NCBI GenBank assembly: GCA_964016885.1
Contig: OZ024741.1
Location: 63,860,001 to 63,924,000, forward strand
Reading direction: 5' to 3'
Source of the DNA: Eledone cirrhosa
Taxonomy: Eukaryota
DNA: 64,000 nt
Shown here: piece after piece, positions 1,302-62,665 of the stretch
Layout: every line of letters starts with the position of its first letter
Position numbering within the stretch: position 1 is the stretch's first letter
The notes under the pieces: generated by a model
What the model was told of the DNA's origin: nothing
The model's input: only the letters and a program-made list of their open reading frames with translations
The model's database searches: none
Translations under genes and position numbers: made by a program

Positions 1302-2160
1302 AGTAAATCATCTAACCACCCTCCTCCCATCCTCAACTCTATAGTGAGGAGCGTCTCTCATAGAATCTGGAGGCTTTCAGCTAACGAAGATATATTTAAC
1401 AGCACTGCAGAGTACTATAACAGTGTGCTGGCAGCGTCTGGCTATAATAATTGTTTCTACAGTTGACACAAGGCCAGCAATTATCCCAGTGCATTACTGG
1501 TACTTTATTTTATCGACCCCGTAACGATGAAAGGCAAAGTTAACCGCGGCGGGATTTGAACTCAGATCATAAAGGGCCGTAACTTTTTGCGGCAAAGCAT
1601 CACGTCCGACCCTCTACCGATACTGCCAATCCACCGTCTGGCTATAATAATAAAATCTCTTACATCCAGGCTGTTAACTCATCTAAAATCCCATTTAATA
1701 TTAATAACATAATCGCACAACGCACTAACCTTATTAACGATCAGATTAATAAAAATAGACTAGAATAAATTATTAGCTCTGAGAAATGTCACCATAGTGA
1801 TAGAATAGCTAGGTCCTGCCATAATAACCAACCTTCCTCCCCTAATAAAGTTGGAGCAACTAACCTAGATATATTCCCTGCTTATCGATTATAGACGCAA
1901 TAATGGGGGTGGACTGCTACCTACGCCTACTAATAAGCAGTTATCTCCCATTACATTGAACGATCGTGGGTTTACCTCCCCTTTAGGAAGTGACTGTTTC
2001 TACACAGTTGATTTTTCCTTTTCGTACAACCTCATTTAAACTGAGCTGATGATGCGAATAAGGTGAAACAACTGTTCCCGGTAATGGTGAATTAACTGTT
2101 GTGGAACCACTTCTACCAAACTCGTCCCATGGACTGAGTGCTCTACTACTACAGATATAA
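1302..2160 (+). mobile_element. Degenerate Naiad-type Penelope-like fragment, interrupted by a SINE
   Basis: 1302-1450 translates SKSSNHPPPILNSIVRSVSHRIWRLSANEDIFNSTAEYYNSVLAASGYN, matching the thumb region of the PLE ORFs at 13526 and 47262. Degenerate CTGATGA..GAAA motif near 2046-2068. Right boundary approximate. Confidence 0.7.
1452..1634 (-). mobile_element. tRNA-derived SINE family 1 (Nin/Deu-like central domain), 17-bp TSD
   Basis: A/B boxes (TGGCAGTATCGG, GAGTTCAAATCC) and TTGCCTTTCATC..GGGGTCGATAAAATAAAGTACCAG domain. TSD CGTCTGGCTATAATAAT at 1435-1451 and 1635-1651. Confidence 0.9.
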
Positions 2161-2188
2161 CCGTCCCAGTGTACTACTATTATATATA

Positions 2189-2412
2189 GAGCGGTGAATT
2201 GGCAGTATCGATAGAGGGTCGGACGCCATGCTTTCCAGCATAGTTACGTCTCTTTACGGTCTGAGTTCAAATCCCGTCGAGGTTAACTTTTCCTTTCATC
2301 CTTACAGGGTCGATAAAATAAAGTACCAGTAATGTACTGGGTCATTGTTGGCCTTGTGCCTAAAGTAGAAACAATTATTATTATTATTATTATTATTATT
2401 ATTATTATTATT
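2189..2412 (+). mobile_element. SINE family 1 with (ATT)n tail
   Basis: Same sequence family as 1452-1634, ending AGTAGAAACA(ATT)n. Confidence 0.9.
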
Positions 2413-3095
2413 GTACGCATGGAGATTAATTACTAATGAAAAACTACACACACAGCAGAGTTATACATATATTATATAATCGATTATATAACTAAGTTAT
2501 AACTTCTTATATACATACACAGATTTATAGATTCAGACATATACCCATGCATATGTATGTATGTATGTATGTATGTATGTATGTATGTATGTATGTATGT
2601 ATGTACGTATGTATGTATCTATGTCGGGTCACTCTTGAATGCTACTGGTAACATGTAACCCAGTACAACCTGTCGCATGGTTGGATCGTCGGCGACTAAA
2701 CAACTATTAGATATATTTATATATATATGTGTGTGCGTGTGTTGGTGTGTGTCTGTATGTGTATGTGTGTGTATTCACATATATAATATATAGATTGCCG
2801 TGTTGTGTATGGAGTAACCACAGATAAAAAAGGTACTCAATACATTGGTAGAGTTTAGGTACAAATGAAATGATTTGGTACAAATGAAACAGAAGTGATT
2901 TCTATATAAAATAGAATAATTACACACACGCACACGCGCGCACACACACGCACACGCGCGCACACACACGGATATATATATATATATATATATTTAAGGA
3001 ACGATCGACTTTCGTCAAATCGGACCGAGGGAACAATGTTTCCGTTGGTCTTTCCAATTGCTAATACTATCTATCGGTCGCAACTCCAGGTAGAA

Positions 3096-3215
3096 GGAGC
3101 AACATGAAATAAAGTGTCTTGCTCAAGGACATAACGCATTGCCTGGTCCAGGAATCGAACTCACAACCTTAGGATTGCGAATCCAATTCTCTAACCACTC
3201 AGCCACACGCCTTCA
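3096..3215 (-). mobile_element. tRNA-derived SINE family 2 (5' part)
   Basis: Minus strand GGCGTGTGGCTGAGTGGTTAG..GAGTTCGATTCC..GTCCTTGAGCAAGACACTTTATTTCA; related to 19373-19642. Confidence 0.82.
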
Positions 3216-3216
3216 C

Positions 3217-59060: not shown

Positions 59061-59439
59061 ATATATATATATATATATATATATATATATATATATATAT
59101 ATATATTATAATGTATTAATTCAATTTATTTACAGAACGGTAAGCATATTTATTTATGAATGTCTTATAGATGTACATATTAATGTATAGGTGCTTTTAT
59201 ATCTATATACAAGCACGGTATTGATATTAGTAATATTAATGTTGAGAATATTTTCATACATATGATATATATCTTTATGAATATATTTCTCAATAACTGT
59301 CAGTATGTCAATCAGTGTGTACATATAACTAGACTGAAGCTGTTATTCGTAATTTAATATAGTCTGGTAGTATGCAATATGACTAGGCTTATTAATATAC
59401 ATATATATATAGAGATTTCGGCCAGTATTGGCCCAGGCC

Positions 59440-59900
59440 ATGTCGAACTTAATACCACCATATGGAGAAGTCTTTCAAATCATACTTCACACTCCAGTTA
59501 TGTTTTGGTCACCATGGCCCACTCAAGTAAGGAGTTATTGGTTTTGGAGATAATATCTGAGTGTAGGGGTTTATCCGTAATTTTTCCAAAGACGCTTTGA
59601 ATTTTATGGGATCTGTTTCTGTTTTATGTGTTTTGGTGTGATGTTAAAGAGAGCGGGACCAGTTGAGGCAAAAAATTGTGCCGTAATGTTGTTATGAAAT
59701 GCGAGTTTGAATTTTGTAGTGGGAGGATAGCACGGATTTTAAAGATGATGCCAACATGAGTTGGACAATGCTGATGGAATATTTTAATACAGATAATGTA
59801 GCGCCCACAGTGACGTTGGAAAGAGTAGAGTTTCAGCTTTTCTAATCGACCCAATAGTCAAGGCCTGTCATGCGGTCTATCTTTTTTGTAATTTTGAGCT
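59440..59900 (-). pseudogene. CR1/L2-group LINE 3' fragment
   Basis: RLEKLKLYSFQRHCGRYII resembles the CR1-type RL..L.LYSL.RRRERY C-terminal motif. Confidence 0.65.
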
Positions 59901-60349
59901 TCAATTTTTATAATACTATATTACGTGTGTGGAGACCACAGTGGACAACAATAATAATAAAAAGAGTTATTCGAGATCTCACCATCCTCTCAAATACTTT
60001 AACGATACGAGTTCCGAGTCGAATATTAGTTTTGGCAAATATCCTTACCGATAACCGATATTTGAATGATGCTTTATTTCTTTGACCTCTGAAGGATGAA
60101 TGGCGAAGTTGACCTCGACTGTATTTGGACTCGGAACGTAAAGAATCAGAAAAAATACAGCTAAGCGCTTTTTCCGACCGTCTAACCTCTGCCAATTGAC
60201 CACCCTTCCAGGATTCATAATATTTATTCCTAGTATAGGTGTGTGTGTGTGTGGGGGGGGGGGGTGTCTGCAGCTGTATCAGTGTGTGTGTGATGTTAGA
60301 CAGCCGCCGGTTCCGATGATGAGTGCTTGATTCAAGTGTAAGTGGTTGG

Positions 60350-60570
60350 GCTTTCATTAGACACGTGAATCCTTAACGTAATTCTCAAGAAGATTCAGCG
60401 TGACAAAATGTTTGATAAGGCTCCTCCCTTATGGATTACGGGTACAGCCCTTTTGCCAGATAATGACTGGAGCAGAGCAAACAAAAGCTTCCTGCTCAAG
60501 GTCACAATGCGCCACTCTGTCCAGGAACCCTAGTCACAACCTCACATCCGTGAGCCGAACATACAAACCA
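60350..60570 (-). mobile_element. Degenerate SINE family 2
   Basis: TGCTCAAGGTCACAATGC..CCAGGAA..CACAACC matches 3096-3215. Confidence 0.6.
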
Positions 60571-60700
60571 CTATATACATATATATATATGTATATATAT
60601 ATATATATATATATATATATATATATATATATATATATATATATATATATATATATATATATATATATATATACATATATATATATATATATATATATAT

Positions 60701-62665
60701 ATTATGAAGAAAGAAGAAACATTTAGATATAATTAGTAATAAAATGTATCATACCTAAACTGCTCCTAAATTCCTCGACTACGTAGTTTCGTGACATAAA
60801 CAAAAACAATATATCATAAAGATATAGAGTCCTTGCGAGGTCTGCCGACTTATCAAGAGGATACCTCATTTTACTAGTCTCAAGAACGCGTCTACACGAC
60901 GTGAGAAAGAATCCCAAAAGGCGGAGGGGGAGATAGTCACGCGATATAACGGTCGAGAAACAGAGCTAAGCCTCTTATAACCCCGAAGAAAATACCACGG
61001 AGGCGGAGGGGGTATTTATATCGAGGCCGTAGAAGAGGTGGTGAAGAAGGCGAGAAGTATGAGTAATGGAAGCTTTCCAGCTGTCCCCACACTTCAAAGA
61101 TTGCTCGACCAGAGGGAGTTATTAACAATATATTTAGAAACACACAGATACATGCGGACACACACATATATACATGAATGCATCCGCACCCAACTGTGAG
61201 TTAAGGGTGCCAACTTCACCGATGTTGCTCAATGAATGACTGGGACAGACCAATTCAGTTGAACTAGACTGAACCAGTATCAGAGTTAAAAATACATTAT
61301 GAAGAGAGAAGAAACATTTAGATATAATTAGTAATAAAATGTATCATACCTAGACTGCTCCTAAATTCCTCGACTACGTAGTTTCGTGGCATAAACAAAA
61401 ACAATATATCATAAAGATATAGAGTCCTTGCGAGGTCTGCCGACTTATCAAGAGGATACCTCATTTTACTAGTCTCAAGAACGCGTCTACACGACGTGAG
61501 AAAGAATCCCAAAAGGCGGAGGGGGAGATAGTCACGCGATATAACGGTCGAGAAACAGAGCTAAGCCTCTTATAACCCCGAAGAAAATACCACGGAGGCG
61601 GAGTGGGTATTTATATCGAGGCCGTAGAAGAGGTGGTGAAGAAGGCGAGAAGTATGAGTAATGGAAGCTTTCCAGCTGTCCCCACACTTCAAAGATTGCT
61701 CGACCAGTGGGAGTTATTAACAATATATTTAGAAAGACACAGATACATGCGGACACACACATATATACATGAATGCATCAGCACCCAACTGTGAGTTAAG
61801 GGTGCCAACTTCACCGATGTTGCTCAATGAATGACTGGGACAGACCAATTCAGTTGAACTAGACTGAACCGGTATCAGAGTTAAAAATACATTATGAAGA
61901 GAGAAGAAAGATTTAGATATAATTAGTAATAAAATGTATCATACCTAAACTGCTCCTAAATTCCTCGACTACGTAGTTTCGAGGCATAAACAAAAACAAT
62001 ATATCATAAAGATATAGAGTCCTTGCGAGGTCTGCCGACTTATCAAGAGGATACCTCATTTTACTAGTCTCAAGAACGCGTCTACACGACGTGAGAAAGG
62101 ATCCCAAAAGGCGGAGGGGGAGATAGTCACGCGATATAACGGTCGAGAAACAGAGCTAAGCCTCTTATAACCCCGAAGAAAATACCACGGAGGCGGAGGG
62201 GGTATTTATATCGAGGCCGTAGAAGAGGTGGTGAAGAAGGCGAGAAGTATGAGTAATGGAAGCTTTCCAGCTGTCCCCACACTTCAAAGATTGCTCGACC
62301 AGAGGGAGTTATTAACAATATATTTAGAAACACACAGATACATTGATAAGTCGGCAGACCTCGCAAGGACTCTATATCTTTATGATATATTGTTTTTGTT
62401 TATGCCACGAAACTACGTAGTCGAGGAATTTAGGAGCAGTTTAGGTATGATACATTTTATTACTAATTATATCTAAATGTTTCTTCTCTCTTCATAATGT
62501 ATTTTTAACTGGTTCAGTCTAGTTCAACTGAATTGGTCTGTCCCAGTCATTCATTGAGCAACATCGGTGAAGTTGGCACCCTTAACTCACAGTTGGGTGC
62601 GGATGCATTCATGTATATATGTGTGTGTCCGCATGTATCTGTGTGTTTCTAAATATATTGTTATA
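60701..62665 (-). repeat. 595-bp tandem array (about 2.75 units) plus terminal inversion, one U3-A8 hammerhead per unit (retrozyme-like)
   Basis: Period 595 (60772, 61367, 61962); 62343-62665 inverted; (TA)n on both sides. Confidence 0.92.
60772..60861 (-). ncRNA. Type I hammerhead ribozyme with compensatory U3-A8 core, family H (copies 61367-61456, 61962-62051; partial plus copy 62343-62427)
   Basis: UCCUC-UUGAUAA-GUcGGCA..UG(U/C)CAC-GAAA-CUACGUAG-UC^GAGGA; palindromic stem III ACUACGUAGU. Confidence 0.83.

Follow-up and report, generated by a model that had tools for sequence, protein, structure and literature searches.

The 64,000 nucleotides of Eledone cirrhosa DNA analysed here (contig OZ024741.1, positions 63,860,001 to 63,924,000, hereafter the window) raise a simple question: what are the many hammerhead ribozyme motifs scattered along them, and which elements brought them there? 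Our answer is that 16 intact type I motifs, together with about 15 damaged or half motifs, are very probably the 3'-end ribozymes, lying in pseudo-long terminal repeats (pLTRs), of many families of Penelope-like elements (PLEs) of the Hydra clade, four of them placed behind broken Hydra open reading frames (ORFs). The elements assigned to the Hydra clade occupy about 38% of the window, as measured with bounds drawn by hand. The DNA is AT-rich and full of runs of (TA)n, (AAT)n and (CA)n; we read positions 1-24000 and 38001-64000 directly by hand, and 24001-38000 by scripts only.

The motifs were counted with a descriptor whose core comprises a C3-G8 or U3-A8 pair, GAAA and a UH cleavage site, with a stem I of at least 4 bp, a stem II of at least 3 bp in which one mismatch or bulge is tolerated, and a paired stem III. 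A first version, which also demanded that positions 10.1 and 11.1 be paired, missed family A because a U.U pair stands at the base of its stem II; the descriptor was loosened once, after motifs had been seen, and the shuffled controls were run with the relaxed form. This strict descriptor has 16 type I matches in the window, every one on the minus strand: eight in family A, two in H, and one each in B (16129), B-like, C, D (9624), E and G (40515). They represent 9 separate insertions, six of the motifs lying in a single A array. A preliminary description, made from the letters alone, had listed 27 full motifs (nine of A, three of H, two each of B, D, F and G, one each of B-like, C, E, I, J, K and L), and a hammerhead-like sequence is indeed present at every coordinate it gave. 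These 27 sort into the 16 strict motifs (8 of 9 for A, 2 of 3 for H, 1 of 2 for each of B, D and G, and the single copies of B-like, C and E), three which keep the core but have a stem defect, six with one core substitution and two weak ones. The three are A 8857, H 62046 and L 57957, in which a stem mismatch accompanies an intact core and cleavage triplet, so that core and triplet are both intact in 19 of the 27; the six are B 6590, D 45868, both F motifs, K and I; the weak ones are G 40715, which stops at its own cleavage site, and J, whose stems I and II show, by eye, no more than about 2 bp. When the partial H, a second L arm and a pair at 2046 and 24314 are added, the sites number 31 in all, plus several 3' halves. 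The stems are wholly different from one family to the next.

The claim that the window holds over 20 motifs stands only if relics are counted, 16 being intact by the strict descriptor; that of about a dozen families holds for the 13 that were named, a copy with an intact core being found in 9 of the 13. The census is genuine but counts relics, and relics and intact motifs need separating. The motifs had all been called type I, correctly: the type II and type III topologies each gave 0 matches in the window and are ruled out. When one core mismatch was allowed, 11 further matches appeared, four of which are named motifs while most of the others look like chance; we did not count this tier as enrichment, and the shuffle controls cover the strict form only.

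The excess of motifs is far above chance. In dinucleotide shuffles, 200 each of the whole window, of its 1-kb tiles and of its 200-nt tiles, the mean number of strict matches was 0.14, 0.17 and 0.18 respectively, and the maximum over the 600 was 2, against 16 in the real sequence; the preliminary description had proposed to set its hit rate against shuffled sequence, and the excess survives that comparison. The reversed window and the complemented window contained 0 strict matches each, and 166 permuted decoy cores searched on the real sequence gave a mean of 0.06 and a maximum of 1. We also built a covariance model, R1, whose training set was 47 hammerheads taken from foreign loci, what remained of 49 candidates once two near-duplicates had been dropped. 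Applied to the window, it returns 26 matches at E<=5, of which 19 lie at E<0.35 and 15 at E<0.05, these 15 all being motifs already on the preliminary list; 21 of the 27 full motifs are recovered, and three matches at E 1.8-4.1 look like chance. One might still hold the motifs to be chance matches in AT-rich, hairpin-rich repeat DNA, given that Rfam matches none of them as a hammerhead, that several of the 11 one-mismatch extra matches lie outside any family and that J is weak; yet reversal keeps the hairpins and leaves nothing, neither the shuffles nor the decoy cores come near the real count, and a model trained on foreign sequence recovers the motifs. We give this idea practically no credence as a general account: a chance origin is refuted for the 16 strict matches, and stands only for J and some half motifs.

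The nature of the carriers is indicated by four broken ORF remnants on the minus strand (13529-14517, 17552-19138, 46904-47900 and 50982-51678), whose coding sequence covers the end of a PLE protein that contains the thumb and the endonuclease; a small plus-strand ORF piece of a PLE lies at 1299-1496. The ORF track is empty because Pfam does not recognise these PLE proteins: the only GIY-YIG match is weak (E 0.016) and concerns one of the four ORFs. Hence the statement that the ORF track cannot explain the elements has to be abandoned, as ORF remnants do exist, frameshifted and invisible to Pfam. The remnants match proteins of about 700 amino acids (aa) joining a reverse transcriptase (RT) and an endonuclease, with 33-46% identity over most of the query, and the best of them retrieves 68 longer relatives of about 570-850 aa. 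The alignment of these relatives displays RT motifs, RW[KR], DKT or DKS, a CxCX5C linker, and terminal CxxC and CxH motifs; among 16 aligned homologs the RW[KR]-type motif is found in 15 and DKT/DKS in all 16. The N-terminal region bearing RWK and DKT, present in the homologs, lies outside the 5'-truncated copies of the window. The CxCX5C linker is found in all four window ORFs, and CxxC and CxH in both of those which reach the C-terminus in frame (13529 and 17552).

These are the features by which the Hydra clade is defined in the relevant passages of PMC8557442: a CxCX5C linker, CxxC and CxH around a conserved E and N, no CCHH, and RWK with DKT. The same source describes the clade as short, hammerhead-bearing elements inserted in (TA)n, and its motif table, where one Octopus bimaculoides family is listed, has a U.U closing stem II throughout the Hydra entries. 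We compared the proteins with the published Hydra alignment by eye. The Naiad, Neptune, Nematis and Poseidon clades are ruled out by the linker motif and the domain order. The earlier suggestion of a PLE/pLTR ribozyme population is therefore supported for the window, and the ORF remnants with their Hydra signature sharpen it to the Hydra clade. All four minus-strand remnants have a hammerhead behind the ORF on the sense strand, at a distance of 91 nt for A, 934 nt for F, 1373 nt for B and 1509 nt for K, the link of K to its ORF being less sure on account of a short TA run between them. The 1376-nt inverted arm of F contains the ORF end and the motif together, and two separate B insertions have the ORF end and the motif in common.

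An outside test was provided by 78 metagenome loci of relatives. A sense-strand hammerhead is found in 36 of the 56 foreign Hydra loci having at least 250 nt downstream, and in 43 of the 78 overall, at 73-519 nt from the end of the match; the shuffled mean is 0.06, and there is 1 antisense match in the 78 loci. Stem II is closed by a U.U at 10.1/11.1 in 24 of 44 foreign matches, as it is in families A, F, G and L of the window. Six foreign loci (L003, L027, L036, L044, L050 and L075) have the same hammerhead on both sides of the ORF, at a spacing of about 2.4-2.8 kb, and are complete pLTR-ORF-pLTR units; four others (L005, L020, L042 and L066) have two different hammerheads each.

Several points weigh against our interpretation. 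Rfam reports no hammerhead at its gathering threshold over the whole window, and none of its 54 matches at E<=10 over 8300-16300 is a hammerhead; nor is there one among the best 150 of the 289 matches listed for the whole window, and the microRNA matches which Rfam does report are microsatellite and hairpin noise. Covariance scoring, another check proposed at the outset, thus gave a divided answer, the Rfam models missing all the motifs that the custom model recovers to the extent of 21 of 27. R1 itself fails to recover six (B 6590, the two D motifs, G 40715, J and K). Its E-values are approximate, and since it was our own descriptor that chose the training rows, the pair counts are partly built in and are no independent evidence. 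Within family A there is no two-sided stem change among five copies. No ORF accompanies nine of the 13 families in the window (B-like, C, D, E, G, H, I, J and L), and for these a PLE origin is read from anatomy only. The gap between ORF and motif in F, B and K (0.9-1.5 kb) exceeds that of the foreign loci. As to activity, the hammerhead fold of the family A monomer lies 6.8 kcal/mol above the minimum, minimal PLE motifs cleave little (PMC4209133), one of nine Xenopus dimers was cut (10.64898/2026.07.22.740005), and core mutants of an anole PLE did not impair insertion in vitro (PMC11167929).

The ORF-less families could, in principle, be free-standing elements, similar to retrozymes or to short interspersed elements (SINEs), which possess their own hammerheads and are moved by long interspersed elements (LINEs), and not PLE ends at all. 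Intact-looking LINE RTs at 25190-37654 and the presence of H in the window only as an array agree with this, as do the nine families devoid of an ORF. However, the LINEs sit in (AAT)n and not in (TA)n, whereas a (TA)5+ run occurs at most 260 nt away on the 3' side of 15 of the 20 non-A sites, against 23% of random positions (3 A sites were excluded because A has internal TA runs); many of the motifs had been described as sitting in (TA)n-flanked elements, and this count bears the description out. An inverted 5'-truncated partner accompanies eight insertions, those of D, F, G, H, I and L and two unnamed palindromes. PMC8557442 draws this very structure for PLE insertions, and such partners, like the (TA)n 3' flanks, are PLE traits according to the passages cited from it. 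Moreover the ORF-less families have the Hydra-type motif build, and family A shows an array and an ORF-linked form in one window. We consider the free-standing origin quite improbable, and retain the reading of these families as Hydra-clade ends.

If they are such ends, the published biology of the clade suggests how the window may have been filled. The RT and GIY-YIG endonuclease of the element would insert a copy of its RNA into (TA)n, starting at the 3' end; truncation on the 5' side would shorten most of these copies, the hammerhead-bearing end being kept by nearly every insertion; and each landing would bring (TA)n-flanked sequence, a target for later landings. We propose that short ORF-less pieces outnumber coding ones because 5' shortening spares the hammerhead end. 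As a separate observation, six of the eight inverted partners (10083, 42928, 43260, 57947, 59000 and 62343) start at the hammerhead 5' core or within about 20 nt of it, and not at the cleavage site, as if copying tended to stop or fold back at the ribozyme.

Consecutive ORF-less tandem units with a complete type I hammerhead occur in A (six units) and in H (two intact of three). Five units of the A array are 99-100% alike, and the array is 90-92% identical to the A copies found behind an ORF, which ties array and parent together within the window. The 422-bp array of A and the 595-bp array of H look like ends amplified in tandem, and fit the non-LTR retrozymes (PMC7229834), for which a PLE origin has been proposed (10.64898/2026.07.22.740005). 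In H the hammerheads at 60772-60861 and 61367-61456 are intact and that at 61961-62052 has a stem II mismatch, while the inverted copy at 62343-62663 (plus strand) begins at the first core base, without the 5' strand of stem I.

Fifteen of the 16 intact motifs have a stem III that is self-complementary throughout or with a single exception. The monomer's hammerhead fold lies 3.4-10.8 kcal/mol above the minimum in A, B, B-like, C and G, 1.1-1.4 kcal/mol above it in H and at 0 in D and E, the hammerhead of D being the minimum-energy fold itself. Taken together, the self-complementary stem III and the fold above the minimum suggest that pairing with a second copy would be necessary for A, B, B-like, C and G, as in PMC4209133. 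These five are predicted to cut only as dimers in tandem transcripts, releasing unit-length RNAs able to circularise, and D, E and H may fold as monomers. The cut-to-cut unit of A folds stably (z -6.3), TA-rich hairpins contributing to this value. Copies with core substitutions are probably dead.

The sole feature which lacks an explanation is the one-way orientation of the motifs. Not only are the intact motifs on the minus strand in 16 of 16 cases, but the main copy (assigned by hand as whichever arm has the ORF, the complete motif or the longer 3' end) is on the minus strand at 21 of 23 sites, p 7e-5, a value which overstates independence since the sites are clustered; and the copies on the plus strand all show truncation, a core substitution or a weak stem. 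This would be expected if the window lay in a long plus-strand transcript from which the cutting copies had been purged, intact motifs being left only antisense. Against such a ribozyme-specific effect, no host exon was found among the 135 short frames of the window, and a tRNA-type SINE leans the same way (minus at 12 of 17 sites, p 0.14; Fisher p 0.11 against the PLE sites). Pfam run on 31 long and 135 short frames gave only LINE and DDE matches and two weak ones, and a 178-aa frame at 54265-54798 has no clear Atlas family. The orientation is explained by a general antisense bias, by a small-RNA cluster confined to one strand or by nested insertion as well as it is by purging, which we regard as doubtful. 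No paper in our literature search appears to address the one-way orientation of intact motifs. A wider claim, which we likewise think unlikely, is that the window has one of the densest known hammerhead loads, from an unrecognised Hydra-clade radiation whose motifs cut nascent host RNA in vivo, intact copies surviving only antisense. Were it true, the orientation of intact versus core-mutated copies would be a genome-wide natural read-out of PLE hammerhead activity in cells; and if the one-way orientation proved specific to intact cores, it would show ribozymes acting on host transcripts.

Table 1. Hammerhead-bearing features of the window (positions within the window).
Feature	Coordinates	Strand	Remarks
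Degenerate hammerhead element, core 2046, mismatched stems	2006..2701	+	Inverted duplicate 23647-24355, 99.6% identity
Family A tandem array of a PLE end, retrozyme-like, units of 422-424 bp broken by (TA)n	3423..6388	-	Cut-to-cut unit folds at z -6.3
Six intact hammerheads of the A array	3692-3734, 4114-4156, 4536-4578, 4958-5000, 5553-5595, 5977-6019	-	R1 E 0.003 each
Old PLE 3' remnant, kin of the B element (73-76% identity)	6499..8278	-	Hammerhead 6540-6602 with G5 substitution
Intact family C hammerhead with 8-bp stem I and GUC site, flanked by 54-nt inverted repeats	8376..8425	-	R1 E 0.0007
Family A copy diverged to 82-86% identity; intact core but mismatch in stem I	8821..8863	-	R1 E 0.03
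Family D element; intact hammerhead 9624-9705, long stem III	9420..10281	-	Inverted 5'-truncated half copy 10083-10281 (+); missed by R1
Family E hammerhead, intact	12143..12226	-	R1 E 0.018
Hydra-clade PLE remnant (thumb, CxCX5C linker, GIY-YIG end; ORF 13529-14517) with 1376-nt inverted copy	12440..15889	-	
Family F hammerheads, both with U4 substitution	12547-12597, 15818-15868	-, +	Within 12440..15889
Hydra-clade PLE remnant, frameshifted RT-to-endonuclease pieces 17552-19138, end at (TA)n	16088..19200	-	Intact B hammerhead 16129-16191; R1 E 0.043
Family G, intact hammerhead 40515-40572 (-)	40515..40762	-	Inverted partner (+, core 40715) stopping at cleavage site against (TA)n; R1 E 0.21
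Family I, degenerate hammerhead 42703-42748, 3-8 pair broken	42595..43070	-	Inverted 3' half 42928-42958 (+); R1 E 0.17, 0.65
Palindromic mini insertion, hammerhead 3' halves only	43125..43326	-	Second copy 58868-59060; absent from the preliminary list
Family J, convincing 3' half, stems I and II weak	43597..43640	-	By eye; outside descriptor and R1 matches
Family D second copy, G12 substituted	45860..45945	+	One of the two main copies on the plus strand
Hydra-clade PLE remnant (frameshifted ORF 46904-47900), then after 91 nt two A units	46120..47900	-	Intact hammerheads 46345-46387, 46779-46817
Hydra-clade PLE remnant (ORF pieces 50982-51678)	49232..51680	-	K hammerhead 49431-49477 with U4 substitution; GIY-YIG E 0.016
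Family L palindrome; plus arm 57951-58001 core intact, stem II weak; minus arm 57894-57944 with core substitution	57874..58021	.	R1 E 0.006, 0.22
B-like hammerhead, intact	58411..58476	-	5'-truncated half copy 57680-57741; R1 E 0.31
Family H, 595-bp tandem array, U3-A8 core	60702..62663	-	R1 E 0.005, 0.005, 0.046

The features of Table 1 are accompanied by some others. A third, decayed copy of family L lies near 10909-10975. Long near-perfect hairpins (180-nt arms, 4-nt loop) occur within the D elements at 45447-45810 and 9927-10099, and derive from D's own 3' sequence. At 19150-19185 (minus strand), just upstream of the RT piece of the B element, a core-like word and a palindromic 3' half are perhaps a decayed upstream hammerhead. 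The inverted duplicate 2006-2701 / 23647-24355, whose copies are 21 kb apart, has a SINE inside the degenerate hammerhead element. The abundant tRNA-type SINE, at 17 sites (e.g. 2188-2376 and 57218-57453), has A/B-box-like words and an (ATT)n tail. Plus-strand LINE copies are stacked at 24445-30108 and 36099-37985 (with one 1141-aa RT ORF), between (AAT)n runs and in the tails of minus-strand SINEs; we take them to be R4/Dong-like. At 30861-35444 (minus strand) lies a frameshifted LINE whose domains are AP endonuclease, RT and zf-RVT; a DDE_1 transposase fragment occupies 266-580 (plus strand), and a small element with terminal inverted repeats, seen by eye, 44550-45060. A weak villin-headpiece match of 28 aa (E 5e-4) at 41097-41339 (minus strand), inside a short repeated element, is probably due to chance.

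What the window contains is new families of a known kind, since the pairing of PLEs with hammerheads is already published, as are the occurrence of many families per genome, the U3-A8 core variant, the U.U mismatch of stem II, the (TA)n targeting of Hydra elements and the relationship of retrozyme arrays to PLE ends. To this the window adds about a dozen motif families which Rfam misses, a direct link from array to parent for family A, and a panel which runs from predicted dimer-dependent to monomer-competent designs. We found no genome-wide hammerhead census of octopods in the literature searched, most subscription journals lying outside it. A giant squid paper gives 235 Rfam hammerhead matches, and in the genome of PMC13282606, as far as the part cited goes, PLEs make up 6.83% with 190 families, in a repeat mix like that of the window.

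Finally we compare the motifs with four known systems. They have the catalytic core and cleavage triplet of the Rfam hammerhead families (Hammerhead_1 and its relatives), but reach no Rfam model, differ in the lengths of stems II and III and show no evident contacts between loop 1 and loop 2. With the PLE pLTR hammerheads of PMC4209133, in the passages cited, they share the type I topology, the many unrelated families per genome, mostly single and away from ORFs, opposite-strand pairs 100-700 bp apart, a palindromic stem III, the U3-A8 variant and an extra base before stem II. They differ in that stem III is longer than in that minimal form (3-10 bp in a dimer) and that G10.1-C11.1 is kept only in B, D, E and H; the load of one intact motif per 4 kb is far higher than that of the 4,000-9,000 per genome given there, though a window is not comparable with a genome mean. 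Like the Hydra-clade PLEs of PMC8557442, as described in the passages used here, the window elements have a C-terminal endonuclease with CxCX5C and CxxC/CxH, a hammerhead close to the 3' end, insertion into (TA)n, tandem and inverted arrangements and a U.U pair closing stem II. Unlike them, they include three families with 0.9-1.5 kb between ORF and motif, and four ORF families, all broken, and 13 or more motif families within 64 kb; two words taken from the published Hydra-1_oBim motif have 0 matches among the window motifs. The arrays resemble the non-LTR retrozymes of PMC7229834 and 10.64898/2026.07.22.740005, in the parts cited, in that each tandem unit measures a few hundred bases and has a single type I hammerhead, in their low GC content and in their kinship with PLE ends, and differ in that their circular RNA and cleavage are predicted. 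They differ also in that family A joins an array to its parent ORF within the Hydra clade, a link which Li et al. (10.64898/2026.07.22.740005) analysed in Xenopus.

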